64,000 bases of DNA from Clostridia bacterium (GTDB lineage: Bacteria; Bacillota; Clostridia; Oscillospirales; RGIG577). The stretch covers positions 731 through 64,730 of the forward strand of contig JAFWDJ010000011.1 of NCBI GenBank assembly GCA_017513095.1, given 5' to 3'. A program made the position numbers and the translations under genes. The notes beneath the pieces are model-generated. The model saw only the letters and a list, made by a program, of their open reading frames with translations. It was not told the origin of the DNA and did not search any database. Shown piece by piece: positions 4,297 through 26,365 of the stretch. Each line of letters begins with the position of its first letter. Positions within the stretch are counted from its first letter, which is position 1.

Positions 4297-5382
4297 AAGT
4301 ATCGTCTTGCCGGTGTCGCGGTCGAAGATGAAGAACGAGCCTTCGCTGATTTCGAGCGTGACCTTGTCGCCCGCCTTTACGGAGGCGTCAACGTCAACGA
4401 GCGTATCGAAAAGCTTGCTCTTGAAAAAGCCCGTGCGCACTCCGTTCTCGTCGCGGACTTCCTCGAATCTGCCCTTTATGCCGCTTTCGGCGTGCCTGCT
4501 CGGCTTCAGACCGTTATGGCGTATGCCCACGGTGACCTCGCGGCCGACGTAATTCGAGAGCTTCTTGTTTTCGGGCGCGAAAACGGGTATAACGGACGAC
4601 GCCTTATCGATCGAGAGCACGTATCCGCTCTCCCCCTCGGAGAGCACGCCCTCGACGGTCGTCATGTGGAAGTGGTTTATGAACTGCGCAACGTAGACGT
4701 TCGCGGGCGTTTCGTATATCTTTCTCACGCCGTCCACCTGCTGTATGTAGCCGTTCTTTAATACGACGGTGCGCGCCTTCAGCGCGAGCGCCTGCTCGGG
4801 ATTGTTAGTTGCAACGAGCATCGTAAGCTTGAACTTCTTATTAAGATTTATTATAGCCTGCCAGAAGAGCTCCTGCTCCGACGGCGGGATATCGGGGAAC
4901 GGCTCGTCTATGAGTATTATCTTCGGCTCACGGATGACGGCGCGGGCAAGTATCGCCGCGAAGCTCTCCGCCGGAGCAAGCTCCTCGGGGAGGCTCTCAA
5001 GGATGCCCGTAATGCCCATGTCCTCGGCCGCCTTCATTATTCTTTCGCGCCTCTTCGCTGCGGGCAGCTTCACGAGGCGAAGGCTGAATTCAAGATTCTC
5101 GTATACCGTATGGCCCGGATAGAACGTGTGGCTCGGAAATATCACAGAGACGTCTCTGTCCTTAGGTGTTACGCCCGCGCAGCTCTGCTGCTCTATGAAT
5201 ATTTCGCCCTCGTCGGCCGCTTCAAGGCCGCAGATTATATTTAAGATAGTGCTTTTGCCCGACCCCTTCGGACCTGCAAGCACTACAAGCTCTCCCGTGG
5301 AAAGATCAAGATTGAAATTCGAAACGGCGTTTATGCCGTTACCGTAGCGTTTCGACACGCCCTTAAGCAATAAACCGGACAT
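4294..5382 (-). CDS. MalK/MsmX-like ABC transporter ATP-binding protein with degenerate catalytic motifs
   Basis: The start was moved to the ATG at 5382 (MSGLLLKGVSKRYG), which has a GGGGGTGA RBS. Walker A (GPKGSGKST) and Walker B (ILIDEP) are present. The signature LSGGQ is replaced by LAPAE, the Q-loop Q by P, and the H-loop H by N (ATNN). A MalK-type C-terminal regulatory domain is present (ETPANVYVAQFIN...). Confidence 0.8.
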   Translation of the reverse strand: MSGLLLKGVSKRYGNGINAVSNFNLDLSTGELVVLAGPKGSGKSTILNIICGLEAADEGEIFIEQQSCAGVTPKDRDVSVIFPSHTFYPGHTVYENLEFSLRLVKLPAAKRRERIMKAAEDMGITGILESLPEELAPAESFAAILARAVIREPKIILIDEPFPDIPPSEQELFWQAIINLNKKFKLTMLVATNNPEQALALKARTVVLKNGYIQQVDGVRKIYETPANVYVAQFINHFHMTTVEGVLSEGESGYVLSIDKASSVIPVFAPENKKLSNYVGREVTVGIRHNGLKPSRHAESGIKGRFEEVRDENGVRTGFFKSKLFDTLVDVDASVKAGDKVTLEISEGSFFIFDRDTGKTIL

Positions 5383-5523
5383 AATAATCACCCCCGTACT
5401 TATTTGATTGCAAAAATATATATAGATATATATTACCACAAAAATGAAATCTGAAAAGCCCAAAAAACGCCGTTGTGAAATTTCTGCTCATTGCACAAAA
5501 AACAATTTTAAAAACAAACGTTT

Positions 5524-6222
5524 TTAACAAAAAATGCGCTCTTTTTCCTCCGCCGTAAGCTCCCGTACCTCGCCCTCCGAAAGATCGTCGGGGAGTTTAA
5601 GTCCCCCGAAAGAAATTCGCTTCAGCTTCACCACGCGGTTGCCGCGCGCGCCGAACATCTTTTTTATCTGATGATAGCGCCCCTCGCTTATCGTAACGCG
5701 CGCTTCATAATCGCCCGTAATCTCAAGCTCCGCGCTCTTCGTAAGGTAGCCGCCCTCTATGTACACGCCCTCTCTGAACGCGCGCACATCGTCCTCGGTC
5801 GGCGGTTCTGAAAGCCCGACGATATACGTCTTTTTAACGTGCGACTTCGGCGACAGCGCCTCGTGCGCGAACCGGCCGTCGTTCGTGATTATCATAAGGC
5901 CCGTCGTGTATTTGTCGAGCCGCCCCGCCGGGAAAAGCTGTCTTCCCTTATATTCGTCGGGCACAAGCTCCAAAACGGTGCGCTCGCTTTTGTCCTCAGT
6001 CGCGCTTACGTACCCCTCGGGCTTGTTCAAGATGAGATATATAAACGGCTTATACGGCACGATCCCGCCGTCGACGGCTACCTCGTCGCGCGTCTCGTCT
6101 ATTTTCTGCTCGGGCGACGCGGCGCGAACGCCGTTTACGGTGACTCTGCCCTGACGGATAAGCTTTTTAATCGCGCTTCGGCTCTCGCTCGTGCATTCGG
6201 AAAGCATTTTGTCAAGCCTCAT
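5524..6222 (-). CDS. RsuA/RluB-family pseudouridine synthase (S4 domain + catalytic domain)
   Basis: The start was moved to the ATG at 6222 (MRLDKMLSE...). It has an N-terminal S4 RNA-binding domain and the catalytic motif GRLDKYTTGLMIITNDG. Confidence 0.85.
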   Translation of the reverse strand: MRLDKMLSECTSESRSAIKKLIRQGRVTVNGVRAASPEQKIDETRDEVAVDGGIVPYKPFIYLILNKPEGYVSATEDKSERTVLELVPDEYKGRQLFPAGRLDKYTTGLMIITNDGRFAHEALSPKSHVKKTYIVGLSEPPTEDDVRAFREGVYIEGGYLTKSAELEITGDYEARVTISEGRYHQIKKMFGARGNRVVKLKRISFGGLKLPDDLSEGEVRELTAEEKERIFC

Positions 6223-6792: not shown

Positions 6793-7568
6793 CCCCGCGC
6801 GCCCGTGAGCGTTACGAATACGAGCTGCGGCGGATTAAAAAAGCGCGGAAGGTGCGGCTCTATCGCAAGGCCGCGGCTTATTATGAGCTTAAGTCCGTCT
6901 ATGTCGTATTCGCCCTCGGCAAGCTCGGGGAAAAGCCCCTGCCCCGACGAATATACGCCGCGCTTTTTAAACGGCGTGCGAATCTGGCCGCCGTGCGTGT
7001 GGCCGCTTAATGCGGCGTCAAAGCCGTAATCGGTAAAGTGTTTTACAAGGTGCGGCTTGTGAATGAGCAGTATTTTCGGTACGCTCTCGCTTTTCAGCGG
7101 CTCAAGCGCCGCCTTCGCGTCCGAAAGCCACGCCTCGGTCGTATCAAAGCCCCGCTCGTCGTCAAGCCCCGCGAGGATGAAATCACACCCGCCGGCGCTG
7201 AGACGCACGCACTCGTTCGTAAGCACCCTTATGCCGAAGCGCGCAAAGTCTTCTTTTATCTTCGGCACGTCGTTTCGCCGGTATTCGTGATTGCCCGTGA
7301 CGTAGAACGACTTAAGGCGCTTTGCAATCTTCTCCGCGAAAACGTACGCGCCGCGCGTTGACACCTTTTCGTCCACGATATCGCCCGCAAGCAGCGCGAT
7401 ATCGGGCGAATGCGAGAGTATGAGCGAGATTAAGTCCTCGTGTCCGTTTTTATACATAAAGCTGTGAAGGTCGCTTATAAGCGCGAATTTAAGCGCGCGT
7501 CCCACAGGGATTTTGGGCGTAGGTATATCAAAATATGTTACTTCTATATCGCGTTCCCGCGTGAACAT
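6789..7568 (-). CDS. Calcineurin-like metallophosphoesterase
   Basis: The motifs ISDLHS, AGDIVD, GNHE and GHTHGGQ occur in the canonical order. A GGAG RBS precedes the ATG at 7568. Confidence 0.85.
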   Translation of the reverse strand: MFTRERDIEVTYFDIPTPKIPVGRALKFALISDLHSFMYKNGHEDLISLILSHSPDIALLAGDIVDEKVSTRGAYVFAEKIAKRLKSFYVTGNHEYRRNDVPKIKEDFARFGIRVLTNECVRLSAGGCDFILAGLDDERGFDTTEAWLSDAKAALEPLKSESVPKILLIHKPHLVKHFTDYGFDAALSGHTHGGQIRTPFKKRGVYSSGQGLFPELAEGEYDIDGLKLIISRGLAIEPHLPRFFNPPQLVFVTLTGARG

Positions 7569-9460: not shown

Positions 9461-10516
9461 ATGACGGATCATATTGAGCTTATAAATACGCTAAAAGAAA
9501 CGCGCAGCCTTTCGGACGAGGGATTAAAGGCGCTTATGCGCGGCGGCGGGGAGTGCGACGCTGCTCTCTTTTCGGCCGCCGACACCGTGCGCCGCGCGAT
9601 ATACGGCGACAAGGTATATATTCGCGGGCTTATCGAATTTACGAATTACTGTAAGAACAACTGCTATTACTGCGGCATACGGCGCGCAAACCAAAGCCTT
9701 CAGCGCTACCGCCTTTCTGCGGACGAGATACTTGAGTGCTGCGCCGAGGGGTACTCTCTCGGCTTTCGCACCTTCGTGCTTCAGGGCGGCGAGGACCCGT
9801 ATTATACGGACAAGGTGTTCTGCGGCATAATCGAAAGGATTCGCGCCGCGTTCCCCGACTGCGCGATAACGCTCTCCGTCGGGGAAAAGCCGAAGGAAAG
9901 CTATCAGGCGTATTTCGACGCGGGCGCAAACCGCTATCTTTTGCGGCACGAGACGGCCACGGACGCGCATTACAGGCGGCTTCATCCCGAAAGCATGAGC
10001 CTTGAAAACAGAAAGCGCTGCCTTTATTGGCTAAAGGAGATCGGTTTCGAGGTAGGCTCCGGCTTTATGGTGGGCTCGCCGTATCAGACGCCGGACGATC
10101 TGTTACGCGACCTTCGCTTTTTAGGTGAGCTTCGGCCCGACATGATAGGCATAGGGCCGTTTCTTACGCACCCCGAAACGCCCTTTGCGGGCTTTGAGAA
10201 CGGAAGCTTTGAGCTTACGCTTCGGCTTATATCCATACTGCGCCTTATGTTCCCGTACGCGCTCATTCCCGCGACTACGGCGCTCGGTACGATTCGTCCC
10301 GACGGGCGCGAAATGGGGCTTCGCGCGGGCGCGAACGTAGTAATGCCCAATCTCTCCCCCGTTCGCACGCGAAAGCTCTATGAGCTTTACGAAAACAAGA
10401 TATGCACGGGAGAGGAATCGGCGCAGTGCCGCGGCTGTCTTGAGCGGCGCGTAGAGTCCGCGGGTTACCGCATTGTCACCGACATAGGCAGCGCAAAGCG
10501 CGAGACGAAAAGATAA
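9461..10516 (+). CDS. hydE: [FeFe]-hydrogenase maturase HydE-like radical SAM enzyme
   Basis: The start was moved to the ATG at 9461 (MTDHIELI). It has the CKNNCYYCGIRRAN radical SAM motif. The blocks FVLQGGEDPYY, RYLLRHETA and IPATTALGTI match my memory of Thermotoga HydE along the whole length. Confidence 0.7.
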   Translation: MTDHIELINTLKETRSLSDEGLKALMRGGGECDAALFSAADTVRRAIYGDKVYIRGLIEFTNYCKNNCYYCGIRRANQSLQRYRLSADEILECCAEGYSLGFRTFVLQGGEDPYYTDKVFCGIIERIRAAFPDCAITLSVGEKPKESYQAYFDAGANRYLLRHETATDAHYRRLHPESMSLENRKRCLYWLKEIGFEVGSGFMVGSPYQTPDDLLRDLRFLGELRPDMIGIGPFLTHPETPFAGFENGSFELTLRLISILRLMFPYALIPATTALGTIRPDGREMGLRAGANVVMPNLSPVRTRKLYELYENKICTGEESAQCRGCLERRVESAGYRIVTDIGSAKRETKR

Positions 10517-14780: not shown

Positions 14781-17700
14781 TTAAGCTTCGTTCATAAGCT
14801 CAATAAAGCGATGGAGTATCGCCGCCGTCTGGGCGCGCGTTGCGCTGCCCTGCGGATTTAAGGTGTTCTCGTCCATGCCGGTTATTATGCCGTTCATGCA
14901 GCACCAGGATACAGCCTCGAACGCCCAATCGGAGATGTCGCCTGCGTCGTCGAAGTCAAGTCTCATGCTCCATGCGCCCTCGAAGCCGCCGCCCGAAAGC
15001 TTTACGTAACGGTAGATTATTGTCGCCATCTGCTCGCGCGTAATCGTATCGTCGGGGCCGAACGTCTTTTCGTTATAGCCCGTCACAACGCCGTTTTCGG
15101 CCGCCCACGTTACCGCGTCACGGCAGTACGAGAGGCTTCCCACGTCATCGAACGGACATTCGCCCGTAACCTCGGGAGAGCCCGCGAGGCGATAAAGCAC
15201 GGTGACTATCATGCCGCGCGTAGTCTTTAGGTCGGGCGAGAAGTGAGTCTCGTCAGTGCCGACCATGAGACCGTTCTCGTATACGTACTTTACGTCGCCG
15301 TAGAACCACTGTCCCTCGGATACGTCAACGAAGGGCAGTCCGCCGGAGGGCTCCGTCTTTTCTGTCCACTTCGCGTAAACGGTCGTGTTCGAGCTTATCG
15401 TAATAGGCGCGGTTATCGGCTTCGTAAGCTCCTTATCGCTGTACCAGCCGTCGAACTCGTATCCGTCCCTTACGGGCACGTACTTCGAAAGGTCTACCTT
15501 GCCGCCGCTTACGACAACGCTGTCCATCGCGATGCCGCCGTCCGTGTCGAACGTTATGCGGAAGCTCGATTTGCCGGAGCTGCCGCCCCCGCCTCCGCCG
15601 GAGCCTGACTGCTTCGTAAATACAGCCGTGGTCACGGTACTCGGCTTAAGTCCGTCAGCGAAGGCAACTGCCTTTACGGTCGTGGTGTCGCTTATCGCGA
15701 ACGGTGCGGCGTAGGGCGTCGAATTCTCGTCGGGAGCGCTTCCGTCAACTGTGTAGTAAATCTTTGCGCCCTCGGTCGCGCTCGCAATCGTAACCGTCGT
15801 GCTGTTTTGGAACGTGCCGCCCGCGGGCGATATAACGGGGGCCGCCGCGGATGCGGGCTCTTCCATAAGGCTTACGTCAAGCGTTATGCCCGTCGTTGTA
15901 TGCGTGAGCGTGAGCGTCGTATCATTCTCCGTGAGCACCGTGCCGGGCTCAATCGAGTACGTTATGCCGTATTTTTCAATCTTTTCATACGGAGCCTCGC
16001 TTACGGTGCCGTCGGAGAGGCTTATGTTAAGTACCATGTCGCTTAATTTGAGCGGCTCGCCCACTGTCTGCTTCGCGGGCGGAGTCTTAAGCGCAAGACC
16101 CGTCACCTGTGCGACAACGCGCGTGTTCGTTACCGTCACGGGGCTTCCCACGGGCTTCCACGATACGCCGTTGTAGCGGTATTCCTGATAAGTTATGCTG
16201 CCTACCGCGGTCGCGCCGTCGGTCTTGGGATAGTAGGGCGTTACGACCGTCGTCTCGCTCTCGGCAAGCTCGGCACCGGCCATAACTACGCCGTCCTCGG
16301 TTATCTGCCAGCTTACGGGGATGAACTTCGTATCTCCCTCGACCTTGCCCTCAAGGTCGTAATTATCGGCAACGCTCCACATCCAGCAGCGCTTATCGAC
16401 TACGATGTTGTCGCTGCGGCAGAACTCGACCTTATTGTTCGCGGGATCCGCCGTAACGGGGCCGCGAACGACCACAACGCCGCGCGCCGCCGAAAGTCCG
16501 CCGCACTCCGCGAATATCGTCGCCGTGCCCTCGGACACCGCCGTTACCTTGCCGTTTGCGTCTACCGATGCGACCTCGGCGTCATTTGTGCTCCACGTGA
16601 TGGCTTCGCTTCCGTCGCCGCCGGTCAGAACGATTTTCGCGCTTAAATCGGCGCTGTCGCCTACGGTCATATTCTCGTTTTCATAATCCGCGAACGCGAT
16701 CGCCGTAACGGGAGGCGTCGGGTTCTTTTCGGGTACCGTAAGAAGGCCCGAATCGTACTTCGCGCCGAGTGCCATGCCGTTGTAGCACGACACCTCGCCG
16801 TCAATCGTCACTCTGAACGACGCGCCTACGGGCAGCGGATCGAAGGCGGTCTGGTCTATCGCATAGATAAACTCACGGCCTACCGTAACACCGCTCTGTG
16901 CGCCGCCCTCCGTGGGCGTCTGCTTTGCTCCCTCGGCGGTCACGGTCGCGTCGGCGGCCGTAATCTCGCCGGAAAGCTCGGTATCGCCGAAGAATATGCG
17001 AACGCTTCCGTCGCCCTTCAGGGAGTCGAGCGTCATATACTTATCGAACGTGATATAGATTACCTCGCCGTTCTTATCGGCGCGGACCTCTGTCACCGCG
17101 GGCGTGCCCGTGGACGTCATGTTGATATCGACGTCGAGATGCGGAGGCGGTACGGGAAGTACCATGCTTTCCGCGGGCAGATATCCCGCCTTTTCAAATA
17201 CGACCTTCCATGCGCCCGCAAGAACGTCCCATCCGTAGTGACCGTCCGCGTCCGTAGACAGCGGGTTCTCAGGCTGGCCGTAATCCGTCGAGTTCCAAAG
17301 CGTCCATGCGCCTTCCTCGCTCCACGCGGGCAGCGTCTGCCAGTATTCGCTCTGCCACTCGGCGTTGCTTTCGTCAAATCCCGCGGGAACGCTGCCGTTG
17401 TAATAGTACAGCGAAGCCTTAACGCCCGAAAGCGTGTTCGCAGTATTTACCTCGTAGACCGTGCCCGAGGGGTCGATAAGCGAATTGTTGGATCTGGGCG
17501 CGGTGCTGTTGGCTCCGCCTGCGGGCGGCTGCTTGCCGTTCGGAGGATCGCAGTCGGGATTGCTTCCGCCGCCTCCTCCTCCGCCTCCGTCAGGATCAAG
17601 GTCCTTCAGAGCGTTGTTTATATCCTGAAGATGCTTCTTCTGGGCGTCATACAGCGAATCTATAACATTGTCCTTCTGGCTTAACGTTGCGTCTCCCAAA

Positions 17701-20700
17701 AGGCTTCCGCCAAATCCCAAAAGACCGAGTCCGGTACCTATATCGTCGGTCATGTCCTTTGCTATCTGCTTAGCCTTGTCGAAGTCCTCGTCAAGCTCCT
17801 TATTGTATTCATCATATTTATTCTGCGGATCGCCGCCGCCATCGCCGCCATCGCCGCCGTTGTCGCACGGACCTCCGCTGCCTCCGGGAGGAGCGGGCGT
17901 CGGCATCGGGGGCGCGGACGGAGTCGGGAGATCGTCGTAATCATGGGTAAGAAGCTCCCCGGCTTCCGCTACCTTTTTGGCTGCCTGTAATTCGTCGATA
18001 TGTTCCTTGCCCCAGTTAATTATCGGACCGAACAAAGAACCAAGCCCGTCCGCGGACATCGTCTGCGCCTCTTCCCCTGCGTCTATAAGGGGCAGAGACA
18101 TTACGCCGAGGCCGCTTATTCTGGACGTATACGTCAACTCATCCGCGTTGATATCGACGTCAACTCTTATTTTAGCGGGCGTCCCGGACAAAAGTACGGT
18201 CGCAGCTTCATCTGTGTTAAGTGCAGGGTTTTGGTCCTTCCACTCGTAGTATATCTGATACTGCGCGCCGTCGGCCGTTTCAACGGCAGGCAGATACCAG
18301 CGGTTGTCGGGGCCGAAAAGGTCTTTCATTGCGGCCTCGAACTCTGCTTCGCCGTAATCGTAAAGCCCGTTTGCAACAAGCGATACGTACTTATCCCAGT
18401 CGGCTATCGCCTGATCCTGAATCTCCTGCGATTCGAAGGGCTTAAGCACAACTCCCCTGTCCGCGCTGTACGTATGTGCGTAGGGTGAGGGGTCTTCGTC
18501 CAAATCTATTTCCGCCACGGGGGCCGAAAGATCGGTCTCTTCCTCCCATTCTATCCAGAAGGCGCTTACGGGATGTATCGCGTCTCCCAGCTTTCCTTCT
18601 CCTTTAAAAGTATCCCCGTAACGAACAAGCTTTAACGTATCAAGCTCGCTTTCCGTATCGGCCTTTAAATATACCGCTTTAACTCTATCGGGATTATTGA
18701 ATGACACTGATGCCCATAAGTTTTGAAACGGTGATATCGTTAAATAGGAATGATCGAAAAGCGAATATCCGCATACATTTGCCGATTTAAGCGTGGGCGA
18801 GCCGTCATATACTACGGAAAAATACGCCTCTGCCGTTTCAAGCGGCTCGCTTTCACCCTCTCTTGAAACGCTTACCCTTGCTTTTCCTTCGTGTATCTTA
18901 TTTTCGGGGAATAAAGTTACGGTATACTTTCCCACAGGGCCGTAAAGCGCTATTGTTTTCTGCGTTCCGTCAACAACGCTTCCGTCGGGTCTTATCTCCT
19001 CGACGGTAAGTATATAATCATCGCCGGAGCCGCCGTACTTTGAAAGGTCAAACTCGGTAAATACAGAAATGCCTTGGCTTGCCGCATCCGTCTTTCTTAC
19101 CTTTGGATTATATATATCGGCTGAAAGCACGCTGTGATATGCAGCCGAAGAAGCTAACGGAACGGTAAATTCGCGGCCGTCAAAAGTAAGCTTTCGGAAA
19201 AACTGCGATACGGCGCCGTTTTCAAGCGCGTCGGCGGAGATATCATAGCTCAGATGCAGTACGTTAAGGTCAACGCCGTTGTCATTTATATAAACGGTAT
19301 TATCCTTTACCTCATAGGATACAGGCGCATTTCCCCATCCGGGCACTCTTGCAAGCGAAACGTTCTTTGCTCCGTCCGGCAGTATTACCATAGCCGACTG
19401 GTCTGAAACCTCACTGCTTCGCGAATATTGTATGGTGACTCGCGTTTTAACGCGGAAGGTATCCGCGGTCAAATACGATACCTCCGGGCCTGAGGAGAAT
19501 CCGTTCTCCGATTTATTTATGCGGTTCATAACGGGATCGTTTTCTATCAACAGTGTACCCGGATCGCTGCTTTGGGGCGTAACTTTTACGTATTCGCGCG
19601 AACTAAACAACCAGTACCGGGGATCTTCTCCGGCGTCTGTGTTCCATGTACCGACCACGAGGTAAGACACTCCGGGTATAAGATATACCTTTGTCTCGGA
19701 CAGCGTAGTCACCTCGTCGAATACTTTTTCGCCGGTCGACAGCGCATATACGATAATTCTTCGCGGCGTAAGATAATAATCGTCCGTCAAGGTGTTTATC
19801 TTTACCGTATACTCCGCGGCCGTCATTTTATCGACCGTTACGTTAATTTCATCGGGTACGCCCGCGGAACCCTTTGCAAGCGTAAACGTGCCCGTTCCCG
19901 AAAGACTGTAATCTTCGCCTATGCCGGATACGCTCAGCGTAACGGGAGTGCCCTTCGGAAGCTGAAGCGCGTTGAATAATACGCTTCCCTTCCCCGTCGG
20001 TGTATTCAGGGAGGCCGTGCTGTTGCCTATTCGGTAACAAAGCGATGAGGCGTCCGCGCTGCTCTGCCCGATGGGAATAAGGTTCCCGTCTTCCTCTATA
20101 AGCACGTTAACTTTAAGCTCAAGCGAACCCCTGAACGTGCGGTCAGCCTGTATCGTAACGCTCTGCGCGTCGAATGCTGCACTTGTATTCGCGTTTACAT
20201 AATACTCGCCGTCAACGCCCGTAGACGCGTCGTAGTCAATACTTGCGTAGAACGGCGAATGATTCACGCTCGTCCACGATACGGCAGCTTTGCCGTTTTC
20301 GTCGGTCGTTGCCTCTGCCATGGTATGGGACGACTTCAAATAGACAAAGCGGGCGTTAGGCGCAGGCTCTCCCAACTCGTTTTCGATATTTACCAAAATG
20401 GTGCGCGTCTCCTGACTCACTGTGTCAAGTACCGCCGTTTCAAGACGCAGAGCTTTACCGGTTGCGCCAAAGCTTAAAGTGCGCGGCTCCGCGCGAAGTG
20501 TGCCGTACTCGGTCTTGGCGTAGAACGCTTCCGTAGTTACTTTGACGTCTCCGTCCGTGCGCAGGGGAATTATTTCGGTATCCGTTTCATACCAGATGAC
20601 CTGTCCGCTTTCATTCGTAACGCCGCCGTGTCTTGAGTCGGTCGAAACCCTTACCCCCTCAATCGGGGTTCCCTGCTTATCGACAATCCTTAAGGCGAAC

Positions 20701-23700
20701 AGATACTTTTCGGCGGAGACGTTAACGGACGCGTTCGAGTACGATACCGTTATGTCCGTCCATCTGTAAAGCCTCAGTCCGTTTCCGTCTGTCAGAACGA
20801 GGGCGTAATCATCGCCCGCGGGCGCCGTGAACGTACACGTTCCCGTTTTGGCGGAAATTTCGCTTTGAGCGCTGAATCCGTTCCCCGTCAAGGTAAGACT
20901 CATACCGGAAACGTTTGTAAGCTCTGCGAAGTCGTAATTTACACTAAAGTCGACGGCGCGGTCGATGCGGTCGTTTAACTCTGCGGAAAGCTTCTCGCCC
21001 GAAGCGTCGGCCTCGAAGTATATCTTCGTTACGGCCGCGGCCTCGTCGGGGAGCGTAAAGGCCGCCGTCCACAATACGCCGCTTCCCTGCGCATCGCACG
21101 TAAGCTCGGTCGTACTGCCGTCGTTTAATTCAAGCGTAAGCTTCGCCGCCGCGCTCTGTATGCTTCCCGATACGTGCGCGTTCACGCTTATATCGGCGCC
21201 TTTCATACTGCCGAGCCTGTTCTTATCGTATGCGGCGGCAAGGCGGTTGACGCTCGGTTCGTTCGTAAGCGTGACCGATACGGCTTCGCTCTCCTGCGAG
21301 CGGTTGCCCGCCGCGTCAATAGCGCTCACCGTATACGTGCACGTCGTGCCGGGCTCTATGCCCAGGTGCGTATACATGCGCGTGCAGATGCGGGCAAGCT
21401 CCGTACCGTTGCACGTAAGAATATATGCGCTTACGGCCGTGTCATCCGTGCTTCTGCCCCACCTTAAGGAAACGCTGCCGTTCGTTTGAAGCTCTGCGGT
21501 AAGTCCTCCGGGTACGGTGGGAGGCGTCGTGTCGGACGCGGCGTCGATATTCGTGCCCGCGGTCGCTGCGGCGCTTACGGCGCCGTCGGCGTCGACGGAG
21601 TATATCGAATAATTATAGAAGCGTCCTCCGCTTAGCTGCGCATCGGTATACGTCGTGCCCTTTATGTTGTCGGCAATTATCTCGCCGTCGCGCGCGAGGC
21701 GGTAGTGGTCGCAGTCCTCAGACGCGGACGCCGTCCACGTAAGAACCGCCTTGCCCGAGGCGGGCACCGCCTTAAAATCGGTCGGCGGCAGAAGGATCGG
21801 CGACGCCGTCGATTCGCCCGTTACGGTAAAGAATACGCTTTCACTCTTAAACGGATTCGTTTGTCGGCCAAGCGTCTTTATCTCGGCCTTTGCGGTATAC
21901 GTTCCCGCCGCAAGGCCGGTAAACTCGGCCACTTCTTCCGTTATATATTTCTCGCTCGAGGCCACGGGCGTGTTCGTGGAGTCATAAACGGTTATCTTCA
22001 CTGTGGGCGTCTCTGCGTCATCGGCCGACTCAAGCGACGCCTCTGCCTCTTCAAGCTCGCCGTCCGGATCGTTCAAGTATGCAAAGTACACGGCCACGTT
22101 TTCGGCAGAGTCCTTTATTCCCGCGGCGATCCTTACGGTATCGCCGACCGCATACTGACTTTTTTCTACGTATATGCCCGCCGAAAGCTCCGTGGTTCCA
22201 ACGTATTTGCTTGTGCCGACGGTCGATTCGGGAGCTGCAAAGAAGTAGTATTCCGCATACTCGCCGTATGCCTCGTAATCGCGGAATCCTATATAAAGCT
22301 CTTCCTTTTCGCGGCAGTTCTGATATATCACGCGGTCAAACCCCGACCAGCCGAGTGTGTATTCAAGCGGTTCGTCGGGCGTCTCGTCAAACGCGAACCA
22401 GTACGCGGCGTCGGCGTACAGAGAATCCTCCTCCGGAGTCGAAAGCGTGAGTCCCGGGTTCTGTTCGTTAAACGCGATCTCAATCGTGACCGTCGCGCCC
22501 TCGGGCGTATTCGTAAGGTCGGCCGTCGCGCGTCCCATAAGGAGTGCGCCGTTGTCAACGCCGAATACCGCGACGTCGTATTTGCCGCCTACGGGGAGAT
22601 CGGCATAATACGAGCTGGTATTTGCGTCCGCGGATTCGTCCGCCGCGTCGGAGGCGCTGCTCGGGATAAAATACTCATCCGAATTCGCATATTCATACAC
22701 GAAATTGCGTATTTCGGGGTCGCCGTTCTCATCCTCAAGGTAAGCGTACACGCCGCCTCCGTACAGCTCGCCCATGTCGTAGCTGCCCTTATCGTTTTCG
22801 GTGATTAAAACGACCTTAACGCGTGCGGAAGGACGGCTTTCCTGCGGATTCATCGTATATTCAAGCGTGAAGCTGTCATTTCCGAGCCATCCGAGCGCGG
22901 ACTGGTTAAGCTCTAAAACGATGCGGTTTGGGCCCACGGGCGCGCTCGCATGGTTTTGCGTGAGAACGAACTCGGCAACGCCCTCCCCGTCGGGCTCGTA
23001 CGCGCCGCCCCTGCTGTAGCCGCGCATATTCCAAGTACCGCTTGCGGAGTCGTAATCCTCGTTATAGATACTGAAGCCGCCGTACGTCTCGGACGCGGTG
23101 CTGTTAAAGTCCTTCGTGCCGCTGTAATAGTATCCGTAATCGGTCACCGGGTTTCCTATGCTGTCGGTGAGCTTTAAGGAGAGCGTAAGGTCGCTCTGTC
23201 CGATTTTCGGGGACGCGGGCGTAAGAGTAAGATTTTCGGCCTTAAGCGGGCCCGCGCCGATTGAGAGCGACTTTGCGCCCGTAATCGTCTGCTTTCCCAA
23301 AGACACGCCGATATATCTGTCTCGCGGATTCACGAGGTATCCCGTTATCTCGTATTCACCCGGCGCGACGCTCACGCTTCCGCCCGCTGCGGGAAGCTCA
23401 AATACGGCGCCGTCGAGCGAGAGTAAAAGCCGGCTCGGCTGATACGTGCCCGAAGGCATAAGCGTTACCGTATTCGCGGACGCGAGATCTGCGTCAAGAT
23501 TCCATACGATATCGTCGTCGACCGTTTTCTTCAAAATATAGTCTTCGCCGCTCGCGCAAAGCGAAATCTCGGAGTCGCACGAAAGCGAGAACGAAGCGCT
23601 TGCGCTCTCGTCGAGCGTAACGAGCTCAAAGCTGCCCCCCGCGGTCATGGCGGTTATATTCGCGCCTTCGAACGCGTCGCTGCCCGTTACGGTCACGTTT

Positions 23701-25514
23701 ATGCTGTCGCTTAAATTTACGTTAAGATTCTTTGATATGCCGAAGCTCTGCAGCGTGATGCTCTTTATCGCGTAAAAGCCCTCGCCGGATACGAAGAGCG
23801 TGGCCGCTGCTTCGGGATTGCTTAAATCGAGGATGCATCTGCCCTTTGAATCGGCACGGGCACCCGTTTCCACGCCGTATTCGTCGACGATAAGAGCCGT
23901 TGCGCCCGTCGCGGGCTTATTGTCGGGGCCGAATACCGTAACGGTCACGGTATTTTCGGAGCGTATCACGTAAAACCTTCCGCATTCCTCAGAATTGGAC
24001 GCGGGCTGCTCCACAGATTGACCCATCGCGTCGGTAAATCGGCATTTCCATGAATAGAACGACTCGTCAAGCGCGCTCGTATCGAAGGACGCCTCTATAT
24101 ATTCGCGCTCGGTCCCGTTAAGCGTGACCTCGCCCAAAAGAATGTCGCCTGACGAGCTGTATACGTCGCTTGCGTATACGCTCATCGTCGCGGCTTTCGC
24201 TCCCGGGTTGTATAGTAAGCCGCCAAGCGTTATTTCATCCTTAAAAGCCTCCGTGCTTACGCCCGGATCGGTCGTAAAGAGTACGCCGCCGCTTCCCATG
24301 AGCGAAATGCCGTTCGCGTAGTCCGTGAGGAGATTGGACGCATTCTGCGAACGGTCGAACGCGGTCATAACGGGCGCCATGTCGGACGAGTTCGCCGCAG
24401 CTGAGCTCTTCAGCGCCGCCGTCATGCCCGAAAGCAGCGCGGCGGAGGCCGACGTACCCGTAAACGTCTCATACGAGCTGCCCGCGCCCGTGGTCAAAAG
24501 ATCGGTGCCGGGAAGCCAGAAGAAGCTTACGCCCAGGTCCGAGGAGCGTACAGGCTTATTCGACCACGACTCGTACGAATAATAGGTCGAGTTCTTTTTC
24601 GCGTTCTTATGCGAGCCCGCGCAAATAACGCCGCGAAGCGCCGCGGGGTAATAATTGTAGCCTGCCGTGGAGATCGAATTTCCGTCGTTTCCGGCGGCAG
24701 CTATAACGGTGCAGCCCTTCGAAATCGCGTAGTCGACCGACTCCTGCATCGCCGCGGGAGCCGATTTCATGCTCTGACCGAGCGAGAGGTTTATTATATC
24801 CGCGCCGTTATCGGCAGCATAGCGGATACCCGCGGCGATATTGGCCACGGTACCCTTGTCATTCTCGGAAAGAACTCTTACGGGCATCACAGATACGGGC
24901 ATTTTGCCCGCAATTCCCGCAATACCGATATTGTTGTCGGCGTTGGCGGCGATAAGTCCCGCAACCTTGGTGCCGTGCGACTCCAACGATACGTCGCTGT
25001 TTTCGTCGGCCGCTATCGCCTTATCCGAAACTATATCCCAGCCGTCAATAACGCGTCCCGAAAGGTCGGGATGCGCGCCGTTTATGCCGCTGTCAACGAC
25101 AGCAACTGTAACGGGCACGGCGCTTGCGAGATAATTCTCGTCAAGAAGCTGCCATGCGCTCTCGGCATTTATAATCGGGATGTACTGCTGATCGGAGTAC
25201 CTCTCGTCGTTATAGTAGCCGCAGGCTTCCATTACGGCATTCTCCGTAACGGATATTACATCGGGACGGCCCGCATAATCGGACGCGTCCCCGCCTGAAA
25301 CGAGAACTGTCCCCTCCCACAGCAGTCTGCCGCCGTTTACGTCTGCGAACGCCTGCGCGGCCGCCGAATCGGTAAACGTGACAATCCATTCGCCTGACGC
25401 GCCGCGGTCATCGGCAGACGCCGCCATTACGCCCATCGGAAGCATGGTCGCAATCATGGCGAGCGCAAGCAGAAGCCCCAGCGCCTTTTTGAACGATCTT
25501 TTCATTTCCGCCAC
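14781..25514 (-). CDS. Giant (3577 aa) secreted S8 subtilisin-like protease with multiple Ig-like/FN3/Big_2 domains and C-terminal SLH anchor
   Basis: - Single uninterrupted ORF with a GGAG RBS.
- Signal peptide: KKALGLLLALAMIATMLPMGVMAASA.
- S8 catalytic triad: VAVVDSGI (D, ~25095), HGTKVAG (H, ~24975), GTSASAA (S, ~24452).
- Two FN3 domains at ~21255-21795.
- Big_2 domain at ~16465-16710.
- Chitobiase-C-like Ig domain at ~15615-15850.
- Listeria-Bacteroides (Flg_new) repeat at ~15365-15570.
- Three SLH repeats at ~14784-15340. Confidence 0.9.
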   Translation of the reverse strand: MAEMKRSFKKALGLLLALAMIATMLPMGVMAASADDRGASGEWIVTFTDSAAAQAFADVNGGRLLWEGTVLVSGGDASDYAGRPDVISVTENAVMEACGYYNDERYSDQQYIPIINAESAWQLLDENYLASAVPVTVAVVDSGINGAHPDLSGRVIDGWDIVSDKAIAADENSDVSLESHGTKVAGLIAANADNNIGIAGIAGKMPVSVMPVRVLSENDKGTVANIAAGIRYAADNGADIINLSLGQSMKSAPAAMQESVDYAISKGCTVIAAAGNDGNSISTAGYNYYPAALRGVICAGSHKNAKKNSTYYSYESWSNKPVRSSDLGVSFFWLPGTDLLTTGAGSSYETFTGTSASAALLSGMTAALKSSAAANSSDMAPVMTAFDRSQNASNLLTDYANGISLMGSGGVLFTTDPGVSTEAFKDEITLGGLLYNPGAKAATMSVYASDVYSSSGDILLGEVTLNGTEREYIEASFDTSALDESFYSWKCRFTDAMGQSVEQPASNSEECGRFYVIRSENTVTVTVFGPDNKPATGATALIVDEYGVETGARADSKGRCILDLSNPEAAATLFVSGEGFYAIKSITLQSFGISKNLNVNLSDSINVTVTGSDAFEGANITAMTAGGSFELVTLDESASASFSLSCDSEISLCASGEDYILKKTVDDDIVWNLDADLASANTVTLMPSGTYQPSRLLLSLDGAVFELPAAGGSVSVAPGEYEITGYLVNPRDRYIGVSLGKQTITGAKSLSIGAGPLKAENLTLTPASPKIGQSDLTLSLKLTDSIGNPVTDYGYYYSGTKDFNSTASETYGGFSIYNEDYDSASGTWNMRGYSRGGAYEPDGEGVAEFVLTQNHASAPVGPNRIVLELNQSALGWLGNDSFTLEYTMNPQESRPSARVKVVLITENDKGSYDMGELYGGGVYAYLEDENGDPEIRNFVYEYANSDEYFIPSSASDAADESADANTSSYYADLPVGGKYDVAVFGVDNGALLMGRATADLTNTPEGATVTIEIAFNEQNPGLTLSTPEEDSLYADAAYWFAFDETPDEPLEYTLGWSGFDRVIYQNCREKEELYIGFRDYEAYGEYAEYYFFAAPESTVGTSKYVGTTELSAGIYVEKSQYAVGDTVRIAAGIKDSAENVAVYFAYLNDPDGELEEAEASLESADDAETPTVKITVYDSTNTPVASSEKYITEEVAEFTGLAAGTYTAKAEIKTLGRQTNPFKSESVFFTVTGESTASPILLPPTDFKAVPASGKAVLTWTASASEDCDHYRLARDGEIIADNIKGTTYTDAQLSGGRFYNYSIYSVDADGAVSAAATAGTNIDAASDTTPPTVPGGLTAELQTNGSVSLRWGRSTDDTAVSAYILTCNGTELARICTRMYTHLGIEPGTTCTYTVSAIDAAGNRSQESEAVSVTLTNEPSVNRLAAAYDKNRLGSMKGADISVNAHVSGSIQSAAAKLTLELNDGSTTELTCDAQGSGVLWTAAFTLPDEAAAVTKIYFEADASGEKLSAELNDRIDRAVDFSVNYDFAELTNVSGMSLTLTGNGFSAQSEISAKTGTCTFTAPAGDDYALVLTDGNGLRLYRWTDITVSYSNASVNVSAEKYLFALRIVDKQGTPIEGVRVSTDSRHGGVTNESGQVIWYETDTEIIPLRTDGDVKVTTEAFYAKTEYGTLRAEPRTLSFGATGKALRLETAVLDTVSQETRTILVNIENELGEPAPNARFVYLKSSHTMAEATTDENGKAAVSWTSVNHSPFYASIDYDASTGVDGEYYVNANTSAAFDAQSVTIQADRTFRGSLELKVNVLIEEDGNLIPIGQSSADASSLCYRIGNSTASLNTPTGKGSVLFNALQLPKGTPVTLSVSGIGEDYSLSGTGTFTLAKGSAGVPDEINVTVDKMTAAEYTVKINTLTDDYYLTPRRIIVYALSTGEKVFDEVTTLSETKVYLIPGVSYLVVGTWNTDAGEDPRYWLFSSREYVKVTPQSSDPGTLLIENDPVMNRINKSENGFSSGPEVSYLTADTFRVKTRVTIQYSRSSEVSDQSAMVILPDGAKNVSLARVPGWGNAPVSYEVKDNTVYINDNGVDLNVLHLSYDISADALENGAVSQFFRKLTFDGREFTVPLASSAAYHSVLSADIYNPKVRKTDAASQGISVFTEFDLSKYGGSGDDYILTVEEIRPDGSVVDGTQKTIALYGPVGKYTVTLFPENKIHEGKARVSVSREGESEPLETAEAYFSVVYDGSPTLKSANVCGYSLFDHSYLTISPFQNLWASVSFNNPDRVKAVYLKADTESELDTLKLVRYGDTFKGEGKLGDAIHPVSAFWIEWEEETDLSAPVAEIDLDEDPSPYAHTYSADRGVVLKPFESQEIQDQAIADWDKYVSLVANGLYDYGEAEFEAAMKDLFGPDNRWYLPAVETADGAQYQIYYEWKDQNPALNTDEAATVLLSGTPAKIRVDVDINADELTYTSRISGLGVMSLPLIDAGEEAQTMSADGLGSLFGPIINWGKEHIDELQAAKKVAEAGELLTHDYDDLPTPSAPPMPTPAPPGGSGGPCDNGGDGGDGGGDPQNKYDEYNKELDEDFDKAKQIAKDMTDDIGTGLGLLGFGGSLLGDATLSQKDNVIDSLYDAQKKHLQDINNALKDLDPDGGGGGGGGSNPDCDPPNGKQPPAGGANSTAPRSNNSLIDPSGTVYEVNTANTLSGVKASLYYYNGSVPAGFDESNAEWQSEYWQTLPAWSEEGAWTLWNSTDYGQPENPLSTDADGHYGWDVLAGAWKVVFEKAGYLPAESMVLPVPPPHLDVDINMTSTGTPAVTEVRADKNGEVIYITFDKYMTLDSLKGDGSVRIFFGDTELSGEITAADATVTAEGAKQTPTEGGAQSGVTVGREFIYAIDQTAFDPLPVGASFRVTIDGEVSCYNGMALGAKYDSGLLTVPEKNPTPPVTAIAFADYENENMTVGDSADLSAKIVLTGGDGSEAITWSTNDAEVASVDANGKVTAVSEGTATIFAECGGLSAARGVVVVRGPVTADPANNKVEFCRSDNIVVDKRCWMWSVADNYDLEGKVEGDTKFIPVSWQITEDGVVMAGAELAESETTVVTPYYPKTDGATAVGSITYQEYRYNGVSWKPVGSPVTVTNTRVVAQVTGLALKTPPAKQTVGEPLKLSDMVLNISLSDGTVSEAPYEKIEKYGITYSIEPGTVLTENDTTLTLTHTTTGITLDVSLMEEPASAAAPVISPAGGTFQNSTTVTIASATEGAKIYYTVDGSAPDENSTPYAAPFAISDTTTVKAVAFADGLKPSTVTTAVFTKQSGSGGGGGGSSGKSSFRITFDTDGGIAMDSVVVSGGKVDLSKYVPVRDGYEFDGWYSDKELTKPITAPITISSNTTVYAKWTEKTEPSGGLPFVDVSEGQWFYGDVKYVYENGLMVGTDETHFSPDLKTTRGMIVTVLYRLAGSPEVTGECPFDDVGSLSYCRDAVTWAAENGVVTGYNEKTFGPDDTITREQMATIIYRYVKLSGGGFEGAWSMRLDFDDAGDISDWAFEAVSWCCMNGIITGMDENTLNPQGSATRAQTAAILHRFIELMNEA

Positions 25515-25621
25515 TCCTTCTATTGATTTTTATACTCAAAAAAATTACTTACAGTGAACAAAACCTCGAAAAAACATGCAGGATGACCATAACTTCCATA
25601 GCGAGAATGCTTTATTTATTT

Positions 25622-25650
25622 ATTATATCAAAGTTAACGCGCATATTCAA
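25622..25650 (-). promoter_or_regulatory. Sigma-A promoter of the giant protease gene
   Basis: The minus strand reads TTGAAT-17 nt-TATAAT, about 100 nt upstream of the ATG at 25514. Confidence 0.55.
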
Positions 25651-25694
25651 GTGTGATAAAAGAAGGATGGGTAAGAAGAGATGAGTCGGTGCGT

Positions 25695-25718
25695 AAAAAA
25701 AGCACGCCGAAGCGTGCT
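25695..25718 (-). terminator. Intrinsic terminator, second copy of the tRNA-Trp terminator
   Basis: AGCACGC-CGAA-GCGTGCT hairpin with a 7-U tail on the minus strand. It is identical in 23 nt to 26140-26162. Confidence 0.7.
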
Positions 25719-25744
25719 GTTGGTGTTGGGCTAATATCTTTAGT

Positions 25745-26146
25745 GAAATATCTCGCGTTCGCTCGATGCGATATAATTTGCCAAGGCAAATTGCGATATA
25801 TTCGGCTGCCGCCGAATGTGATATAATATAAATCCACTCACGCCCGCAGGCATATCGCTCGCCGCAGGCGAATATCGCGCGCGAAGCGCATATCGCAAAT
25901 CCACGCAGTGGATTTATATCGTTGAAAAAGAAGGATTCGTCCCCTCGAATTCTTTGGCGAGATATCTCGCGTTCGCTCGATGTGATATAATTTGCCAAAA
26001 CAAATTGCGATATATTCGGCTGCCGCCGAATGCGAAATGATATAAATCCGCTCAACGCCCGCAGGCATATCGCTCGCCGCAGGCGAATATCGCGCGCGAA
26101 GCGCATATCGCAAATCCACACAGTGGATTTATATCACTGAAAAAAG
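25745..26146. repeat. Two tandem ~186-bp copies (period 214 bp) of a non-coding hairpin/heptamer-patterned element
   Basis: Copy A is 25745-25930 and copy B is 25959-26146. I count about 12 substitutions and 1-2 single-base indels between them. Each copy has GCGATAT-type heptamers in the left half and ATATCGC in the right half, interleaved with short perfect hairpins. Confidence 0.9.
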
Positions 26147-26167
26147 CACGCCGAAGCGTGCTTTTTT
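26140..26167. terminator. Terminator of tRNA-Trp (bidirectional hairpin)
   Basis: AAAAAAGCACGC-CGAA-GCGTGCTTTTTT starts 2 nt after the tRNA CCA end. Confidence 0.8.
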
Positions 26168-26168
26168 C

Positions 26169-26244
26169 TGGCAGGGGCAGTAAGGATCGAACTCACGACA
26201 CGCGGTTTTGGAGACCGCTGCTCTACCTGCTGAGCTATACCCCT
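26169..26244 (-). tRNA. trnW: tRNA-Trp (anticodon CCA), CCA-encoded
   Basis: I folded the 76-nt cloverleaf by hand.
- Acceptor stem: AGGGGTA/TGCCCCT.
- D arm: GCTC..GAGC.
- Anticodon stem GCGGT/ACCGC, with loop CTCCAAA.
- T arm: GTGAG-TTCGATC-CTTAC.
- Discriminator G followed by CCA. Confidence 0.95.
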
Positions 26245-26259
26245 TTATATGACTATGAA

Positions 26260-26289
26260 AGTATATCACAGAGTTTTAATGCTTGTCAA
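26260..26289 (-). promoter_or_regulatory. Promoter of tRNA-Trp
   Basis: The minus strand reads TTGACA-18 nt-TATACT with an extended TG. The predicted start is ~9 nt before the mature 5' end. Confidence 0.6.
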
Positions 26290-26365
26290 TATTTTTTTGC
26301 GTTTTATTGACCCGAAACGCTAAAAATGATATATTTAAACAAACACCGAGAAGGGGGTTTTTATA

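Follow-up and report, generated by a model that had tools for sequence, protein, structure and literature searches.

Two tandem Gut-1 RNA motif units between copies of a terminator-like hairpin behind a tRNA-Trp gene of a Clostridia bacterium

The DNA between two exact copies of a 23-mer downstream of a tRNA-Trp gene consists of two tandem units of the Gut-1 RNA motif (Rfam RF01706), which are 92% identical to each other. We consider it fairly probable that the locus is a tandem Gut-1 pair comparable to REP/BIME or BOX repeats, and that the 23-mer was duplicated as a side effect of the growth of the array and does not mark a site of recombination. The locus was analysed within a stretch of 64,000 nucleotides, hereafter the window, and compared with relatives from gut bacteria and phages, which show that the motif as it stands in Rfam is only the first half of a larger, modular element.

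Gut-1 was described as a probable non-coding RNA, from human-gut metagenomes only and with no function given (Weinberg 2010, Genome Biol 11:R31, PMC2864571). The flanks of the seed sequences in that work hold a terminator hairpin on the 5' side, repeats of GUGAUAU and a hairpin, and an inverted series of hairpin and AUAUCAC; one seed member has a tRNA 3' end directly upstream (PMC2864571). The motif has been in Rfam since 2010 without organism, context or function attached, and a literature search of limited coverage found no paper naming Gut-1 besides the 2010 description.

The locus behind tRNA-Trp

The 23-mer, AAAAAAGCACGCCGAAGCGTGCT, occurs exactly twice in the window, at 25696-25718 and 26140-26162, and no further copy with up to three mismatches is present in the 64 kb, the chance expectation being 0. 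The tRNA-Trp(CCA) gene lies on the minus strand (26244..26169) with a near-consensus promoter upstream, and both copies, read on that strand, are found downstream of it as a GC-rich hairpin followed by a T-run. Across about 110 related loci, the modules of the family follow one another in the order hp0 (a hairpin), F half, closing segment, R half and, often, a tail hairpin. In these terms, and in the order of the tRNA strand, the features of the window are as follows.

26260..26289, minus strand: tRNA-Trp promoter, sigma-70-type, TTGACA-18-TATACT, TG-extended, 11/12 consensus positions
26169..26244, minus strand: tRNA-Trp, anticodon CCA, CCA end encoded (ARAGORN; Rfam tRNA 61.3 bits)
26139..26168, minus strand: T1, the hp0 of unit A, with the right 23-mer (26140-26162) inside; a perfect 13-bp A-run/stem/T-run palindrome
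25956..26135, minus strand: unit A, Gut-1 family; its F half is the Rfam match at 26062-26139 (47.7 bits, E 3.8e-8)
26039-26051, minus strand: closing segment of unit A, followed by the R half, hairpins with AUAUCRC linkers
25925..25955, minus strand: Tx, a terminator-like hairpin with T5 between the units (stem 25946-25930 plus TTTTT; terminator scan)
25743..25920, minus strand: unit B, Gut-1 family; its F half is the Rfam match at 25847-25924 (48.1 bits, E 3e-8)
25825-25837, minus strand: closing segment of unit B, complementary arms 13/13, followed by the R half
25719..25742, minus strand: spacer of 24 nt, TAAAGATATTAGCCCAACACCAAC, between unit B and T1', with no homolog recognised
25695..25718, minus strand: T1', the left 23-mer (25696-25718) plus one extra T (terminator scan)
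25622..25650, minus strand: promoter of the 3577-aa S8 protease/SLH gene (CDS 14781-25514), outside the element

The order on the tRNA strand is T1, unit A, Tx, unit B, T1', with three terminator-like hairpins in 470 bp. T1, whose arms (26139-26151 with 26156-26168) enclose the loop and which ends in a T6 run, looks like a bidirectional intrinsic terminator; it is missing from the output of the terminator scan because its T-run is absorbed into the stem, and was found as a palindrome. T1' is terminator-like only when read on the minus strand and stands alone, as an hp0 module that no unit follows, and Tx, which differs from both T1 and T1', sits in the hp0 position of unit B. With their GC-rich stem-loops and T-runs, T1' and Tx from the terminator scan and T1 from the palindrome search are all putative intrinsic terminators.

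What a sequence-only reading of the window had observed is borne out by these measurements, with some corrections, and its interpretation is borne out in part. The exact 23-bp direct repeat is real, and each copy is a minus-strand terminator hairpin with a U-tail, the left one by the terminator scan and the right one by the palindrome search. The insert that had been given as 444 bp long has this value as the start-to-start spacing of the 23-mers, whereas the intervening DNA (25719-26139) measures 421 bp; similarly, the distance of 2 nt between the right copy and the CCA end is correct for the hairpin including its A-run, whereas the 23-mer itself begins 7 nt after CCA. A repeat unit of 186 bp had also been proposed, which has to be replaced by a measured period of 214 bp (1.9 copies, 92% identity). 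The claim that the bracketed sequence has no relation to the tRNA holds, and the integrase reported as missing from the insert is indeed missing: no recombinase is encoded in or beside it, the ORFs within the 421 bp are all spurious, and the neighbouring genes encode a radical SAM enzyme, the S8 protease, a cupin protein and EF-Tu. A consensus scan found no promoter-like site inside the insert, so that read-through is the only visible route to its transcription on the minus strand. This agrees with the suggestion of a terminator-to-terminator unit fed by read-through, since the insert lies between terminators downstream of the strong tRNA promoter.

On the plus strand, R-half linkers at 25816-25826 and 25980-25990 read TGTGATATAAT, a perfect extended -10 element (TGnTATAAT). 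Plus-strand starts at these words would run antisense through the F half, and the transcript of unit A would end at the bidirectional T1; such TGnTATAAT-like plus-strand words are not conserved across the other subtypes. Beyond T1', the minus-strand gene at 14781-25514 encodes a 3577-aa secreted S8 subtilase with fn3, Big_2, CHB_HEX_C, Flg_new and three SLH domains, the N-terminal 420 aa of which have no homolog above 45% identity in a collection of 5.8 billion proteins.

A standard-threshold Rfam search of the locus returns the tRNA only. In a permissive search, both units span the full RF01706 model (positions 1-77 of 77) on the minus strand, with 48.1 and 47.7 bits, about 2 bits below the gathering cut-off of 50, which is an operational threshold and no biological feature; the deficit is due to the GCGAUAU linkers of the window copies. 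The other half of each unit gives weaker Gut-1-like matches, on the plus strand. Close relatives score above 50 bits (58.9-70.9 for type A, 53-63 for type B), and the type-A relatives align with the window units, with a mean column identity of 74% across nine type-A units. Since relatives that align with them lie above the cut-off, the assignment of the window units to the Gut-1 family appears secure at the level of sequence comparison. The locus is a slightly sub-threshold member of a known motif family and not categorically new.

Two other readings of the array were rejected. For a 169-aa ORF across the units, the apparent homologs are all element-derived and there is no Pfam match; for a CRISPR-like array, the constant part is only 7 nt long and the would-be spacers are palindromes. 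Public assemblies contain a 'protein' of 147-171 aa called on Gut-1 arrays (window 25612-26121, minus strand; L001, 3247-3741; P0001-P0003). It is homologous to other Gut-1 arrays only and has no Pfam domain, which makes it an annotation artefact, and a second contig carries the identical spurious ORF with the same neighbouring genes. For annotation, this means that gene callers place spurious ORFs of about 150-170 aa on Gut-1 arrays.

Architecture and fold of the element

Relatives were collected by two routes: a search with the spurious 'protein', which led to loci behind tRNA-Cys (L083) and tRNA-Leu (L084), and a pattern scan with one genome per species, which gave at least 118 genome stretches. 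The F half has four short, very stable hairpins with the 7-nt linker GYGAUAU in between, the R half has three to five hairpins joined by AUAUCRC, the reverse complement of the F linker, and the closing segment between the halves reads as the reverse complement of linker 1 together with the 5' arm of hairpin 1. A unit is about 180 nt long in the window, with three or four hairpins in its R half. The closing complementarity, with at most two mismatches in 12, is present in 52 of the 108 elements listed compared to 8% in the control. The closing segment covaries with linker 1 and the hairpin-1 arm in at least eight variants, the compensatory changes including TATAT/ATATA to TCTAT/ATAGA and GATAT/ATATC to GAAAT/ATTTC.

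A nested model, in which F and R linkers pair with each other between the hairpins (hp0, L1:R3, hairpin 1, L2:R2, hairpin 2, L3:R1, hairpins 3-6), was tested on the nine aligned type-A units. It pairs 93.6% of the cells, with 20 pairs changed on both sides, and its covariation score is 0.21 compared to 0.095 in shuffles, none of the 500 shuffles being as high. The Y:R position covaries in all three linker helices of these units, and the hairpin stems expected of Gut-1 have covariation support through the same 20 double-sided changes. A single-stranded unit would fold as a rod, with F and R linkers paired in nested order and hairpins projecting at successive junctions. Linker 1 is unable to pair with R3 and with the closing segment at the same time, which implies alternative folds.

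At one locus (L175, ~5480-5700, MAG CAKSLQ01), linker 1 reads GUGAAAU, linkers 2-4 read GCGAUAU, and ATTTC is found in the closing segment and in all R linkers. The R linkers there track linker 1 and not their nested partners, for which the simple nested-helix model does not account.

The stems are about 97% Watson-Crick, and G.U (13) and A.C (11) are about equally frequent, a composition that appears atypical of a constraint acting on a single RNA strand. Both strands carry F-type modules, which converge. Weighing these patterns against the fixed orientation of the element relative to tRNA and phage genes (see below), we conclude that, at least in part of its contexts, it is probably transcribed and folds as RNA; there may be a DNA-level component as well, in copying or in constraint.

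A tail module is found 10-40 nt past the last R linker in L116, L180, L106 and many type-B loci (L086, L103, L193, L197). Its sequence, ...CGAGAGTTCGAATCCATCTG...AAAAAC...ATCTTTT...CCATAGACA, is conserved and includes a T-loop-like GTTCGAATCC box; since the module is identical behind different tRNAs, it belongs to the element. The possibility that the tail is a tRNA 3' fragment was discarded, as the TTCGAATCC-like box does not change with the tRNA that precedes it and forms its own TTCGA/TCGAA hairpin, and it is therefore no displaced tRNA end.

Hosts, dispersal and tRNA flanks

Nearly all hosts of the listed stretches are gut or rumen MAGs of Oscillospiraceae, Acutalibacteraceae, Ruminococcus, Faecousia and unclassified Clostridia. 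The MAG CAMOVW01 has at least 10 copies among the fetched loci, 67-98% identical and with unrelated flanks, so that the many dispersed intergenic copies characteristic of REP/BIME-type repeats are seen in relatives; the 64-kb window has a single Gut-1 locus. Two copies in the MAG JAZRGK01, behind tRNA-Leu and tRNA-Glu, are 97% identical.

Real elements are also present in six viral contigs (L203, L205, L223, L316, L336, L373). Broad linker-only scans of viral contigs gave mostly unrelated tandem repeats, with three further contigs real beyond L203 and L205. The phage copies stand in late operons: L203 (IMGVR_UViG_3300029305_012192) has elements at ~5000-5100, 7050-7170 and 10040-10200, which follow the large terminase, portal and major head genes, are co-oriented with them and have an hp0 without T-run. 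Wherever the direction of phage copies can be judged, it is that of the flanking genes; for downstream genes the count of co-oriented cases is 54 to 28, a rough figure from a noisy ORF heuristic and a weak indication.

The family shows a marked association with tRNA genes. Among the 100 listed elements with enough upstream sequence, 24 start directly at the CCA end of a same-strand tRNA, from 15 tRNA species, and the orientation is fixed, all 24 lying on the same strand behind the tRNA. The hp0 of these elements has the A-run/stem/T-run terminator form in 22 of 24 cases, while the 76 elements away from tRNAs comprise 49 with a plain hairpin without T-run, 17 with a T-run and 10 with no hairpin of at least 5 bp. 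This indicates that hp0 is part of the family layout and takes the terminator form where the element stands behind a tRNA.

Two loci with the order tRNA-Met, tRNA-Trp, element (L172 and L199), from two other MAGs, carry subtype B (GTTATATTCGCC) with a different hp0 from that of the window, so that lineages differ in the subtype that they carry at one and the same tRNA flank. The order tRNA-Thr, tRNA-Tyr, element is shared by L089, L167 and L180, from different MAGs, suggesting that the element is kept at orthologous tRNA loci and that retention is long rather than movement frequent. In L094 (~1-120), L196 (1-239) and L105 (MAG CAKQKW01), contig ends carry microsatellite-like stretches in which one linker-plus-hairpin module, (GTGATATTGCCTGCGGCA)n, is repeated five times or more, interleaved with other repeats; this suggests slippage at the level of the module.

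The composition of the stems and the dispersal of the copies bear on another way of viewing the family, as a single-stranded-DNA element of the REPIN/BIME type, the 'hairpin plus GYGATAT' modules of which would be nicked by an HUH/Y1 enzyme (RAYT or IS200-type), with the terminator duplication as a by-product. The near equality of G.U and A.C counts in stems that are about 97% Watson-Crick, which shows no strand bias, is consistent with this, as are the F-type modules that converge on both strands, the plus strand of the window giving weak Gut-1 matches, and the inverted-repeat pair (linker 1 with the hairpin-1 arm, and the closing segment) that bounds the F half. The dispersed copies with unrelated flanks and the variable number of modules, including the runs at L094 and L196, also agree with it. 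Nevertheless, we regard this possibility as unlikely: the hairpin sequence changes from module to module, unlike in REPs, no target-site duplication or conserved insertion motif was seen, the elements are retained at orthologous tRNA loci (L089, L167, L180), and transcription would explain the strict orientation with respect to tRNA and phage genes no less well.

Orientation would also suit a trans-acting small RNA, made by read-through from the tRNA promoter and processing, in which repeated single-stranded GYGAUAU linkers titrate an RNA-binding protein in the manner of CsrB/RsmZ. The original description rated Gut-1 as 'certainly RNA, not cis-regulatory' (Weinberg 2010, PMC2864571), and a constant linker between variable, covarying hairpins, the fixed orientation relative to all 24 adjacent tRNAs, the co-orientation with flanking genes in those phage contigs that can be judged and the 54 to 28 count for downstream genes all point in this direction. 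This role appears rather improbable to us, as the RNA would have no promoter of its own and would be preceded by T1, a perfect 13-bp terminator with a T6 run, and as the R half holds the complement of the linker and covaries with the F linkers, which may thus be paired and not exposed. Moreover, there is no excess of G.U pairs, and at least 10 diverged copies in unrelated contexts of one genome, and others in phage operons, would be unusual for the gene of a regulatory small RNA.

Origin of the duplicated hairpin and relation to known systems

The hp0 of the window with its context (GCCAGAAAAAAGCACGC-loop-GCGTGCTTTTTTCAGT) agrees with that of an element behind tRNA-Glu in a Flemingiibacterium MAG (L141) in 37 of 42 positions; of the five differences, four fall on the loop bases. 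An element behind tRNA-Leu (L128) has the same hp0 stem as the window, with another loop. Tx is homologous to the tail hairpin of other type-A elements, as seen in its alignment with those of L116 and L180. As the same hairpin precedes Gut-1 elements behind tRNA-Glu and tRNA-Leu, the 23-mer is a module of the repeat family, and its initial identification as the terminator of tRNA-Trp in particular does not stand.

Among the 86 testable loci listed, the window is the only one where hp0 is repeated exactly at the far side; other long far-side matches are plain tandem or segmental duplications, and flanking target-site or att repeats are absent as a family signature from the other 85. A flanking repeat that is unique to the window and has no tRNA sequence in it is no signature of insertion by the family. 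As for MITEs, which have terminal inverted repeats and a target-site duplication, the inverted repeat of Gut-1 is internal and bounds the F half only, and no flanking duplication was found beyond the window across the same 86 loci. The repeat likewise neither includes the 3' part of a tRNA nor recurs at other insertions, as would be expected of att sites.

Integration that leaves attL and attR was one of two origins put forward by the sequence-only reading, the other being a duplication that carried the terminator along. The first would make the insert a small, integrase-less satellite beside tRNA-Trp with the 23-mers as att cores, and although the exact 23-bp direct repeat around DNA unrelated to the tRNA, the strong enrichment of the family beside tRNA genes and the copies in phages are in line with this, it is the least likely of the rival explanations and, in our opinion, very improbable: the 23-mer has no tRNA sequence and begins 7 nt after CCA, neither the insert nor the DNA beside it encodes a recombinase, the other 85 testable loci listed lack such a flanking repeat, the same hairpin on elements behind other tRNAs indicates that it travels with the family and is no host target, and elements behind different tRNAs begin at the same post-CCA position with hp0 sequences that differ. 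An att origin of the 23-mers is accordingly unlikely, and the local duplication of an element module, the second of the two proposed origins, is the better explanation.

T1' is most likely a solo hp0 copy that arose in the local duplication or recombination by which the two-unit array was built. The order T1, A, Tx, B, T1' does not follow from any simple tandem duplication. By calculation, at the 8% divergence of the units, 23 bases would be identical with a probability of ~0.15; the 23/23 identity is therefore weakly informative, and the 23-mer could have been duplicated as early as the units or earlier.

A search for the orthologous locus with the protease gave best homologs of 41-45% identity and no ortholog, and neither tRNA-Trp nor Gut-1 was found upstream of the radical SAM relatives in 80 metagenome loci. 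The closest view of the flank comes from L003 (1-1211, compared with window 26245-26365), where a radical SAM relative, 89% identical in amino acids, has the same promoter, TTTTATTGACC...ATGATATATTTAA. Beyond this shared promoter, in the upstream direction, L003 is wholly different, which places a synteny break exactly at the tRNA-Trp/Gut-1 block.

In the explanation that we favour, a tandem Gut-1 pair whose 23-mers were duplicated as the array grew, T1 would be the hp0 of unit A, doubling as the tRNA-Trp terminator, Tx would be the tail hairpin of unit A, standing where the hp0 of unit B is expected, and T1' would now act as the last terminator before the protease gene. Most transcription from the tRNA promoter would end at T1, and RNA from read-through would fold into very stable multi-hairpin structures and stop at Tx or T1'. 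We propose that the protease gene, which has its own promoter, would be insulated by this stop. Where it is transcribed, the element may serve as an exonuclease-resistant or terminating 3' structure, and the family probably spreads or is exchanged as modules among loci, genomes and phages, being tolerated or useful at the 3' ends of genes.

The extended two-half architecture, the hp0, the adjacency to tRNA CCA ends, the multi-copy dispersal, the phage copies and the lack of wobble bias make up a family-level picture of Gut-1 that, to our knowledge and within a limited literature search, has not been published. Its hosts can now be given as Oscillospirales of animal and human guts, and their phages. 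About a quarter of the listed copies start at a tRNA CCA end and carry the terminator of that tRNA, and there is a hint that the constraint on Gut-1 is not a simple one-strand RNA constraint. Through these points an orphan motif becomes experimentally testable.

A bolder hypothesis, which we find doubtful, is that Gut-1 is no free-standing small RNA but the visible half of a new class of modular elements with constant linker and variable hairpins in gut Clostridia and their phages. Such elements, whether RNA or single-stranded DNA, would form a four-way-junction ladder, would move among tRNA 3' flanks and phage operons as exchangeable modules, and would supply tRNA terminators. The class might work with a dedicated protein, for instance a nuclease or a recombinase, or take part in the conflict between phage and host.

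The REP/BIME and REPIN sequences of Proteobacteria and the BOX elements of Streptococcus pneumoniae are short intergenic palindromic modules, present in variable number and alternating orientation. They occur in many dispersed copies, usually just downstream of genes, and form stable hairpins in transcripts. Gut-1 resembles them in its dispersed, intergenic palindromic modules at gene 3' ends, but its constant part is a 7-nt linker, its palindromes vary between modules and covary, it strongly prefers tRNA 3' flanks, and its hosts are Clostridia. We know of no association of Gut-1 with RAYT.

With tRNA-targeting integrative elements, the window shares a direct repeat around foreign DNA beside a tRNA gene, but this repeat excludes the tRNA, there is no integrase, and a flanking repeat exists at this locus only among the 86 listed. 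T1, Tx and T1' are, like Rho-independent terminators, GC-rich hairpins with T-runs on the tRNA strand; unlike such terminators, they number three within 470 bp and alternate with hairpin arrays, and T1 is part of a repeat module common to several genomes. The closest likeness is to RF01706 itself, with its three to four consecutive short hairpins and linkers of the GUGAAAU/GUGAUAU type. The Rfam entry covers the 77-nt F half only, as a stand-alone sRNA 'from human gut only', whereas here these 77 nt are the 5' part of a modular repeat of 180-330 nt, which is multi-copy, often adjacent to a tRNA, and found in Oscillospirales MAGs from ruminant and human guts and in phages.
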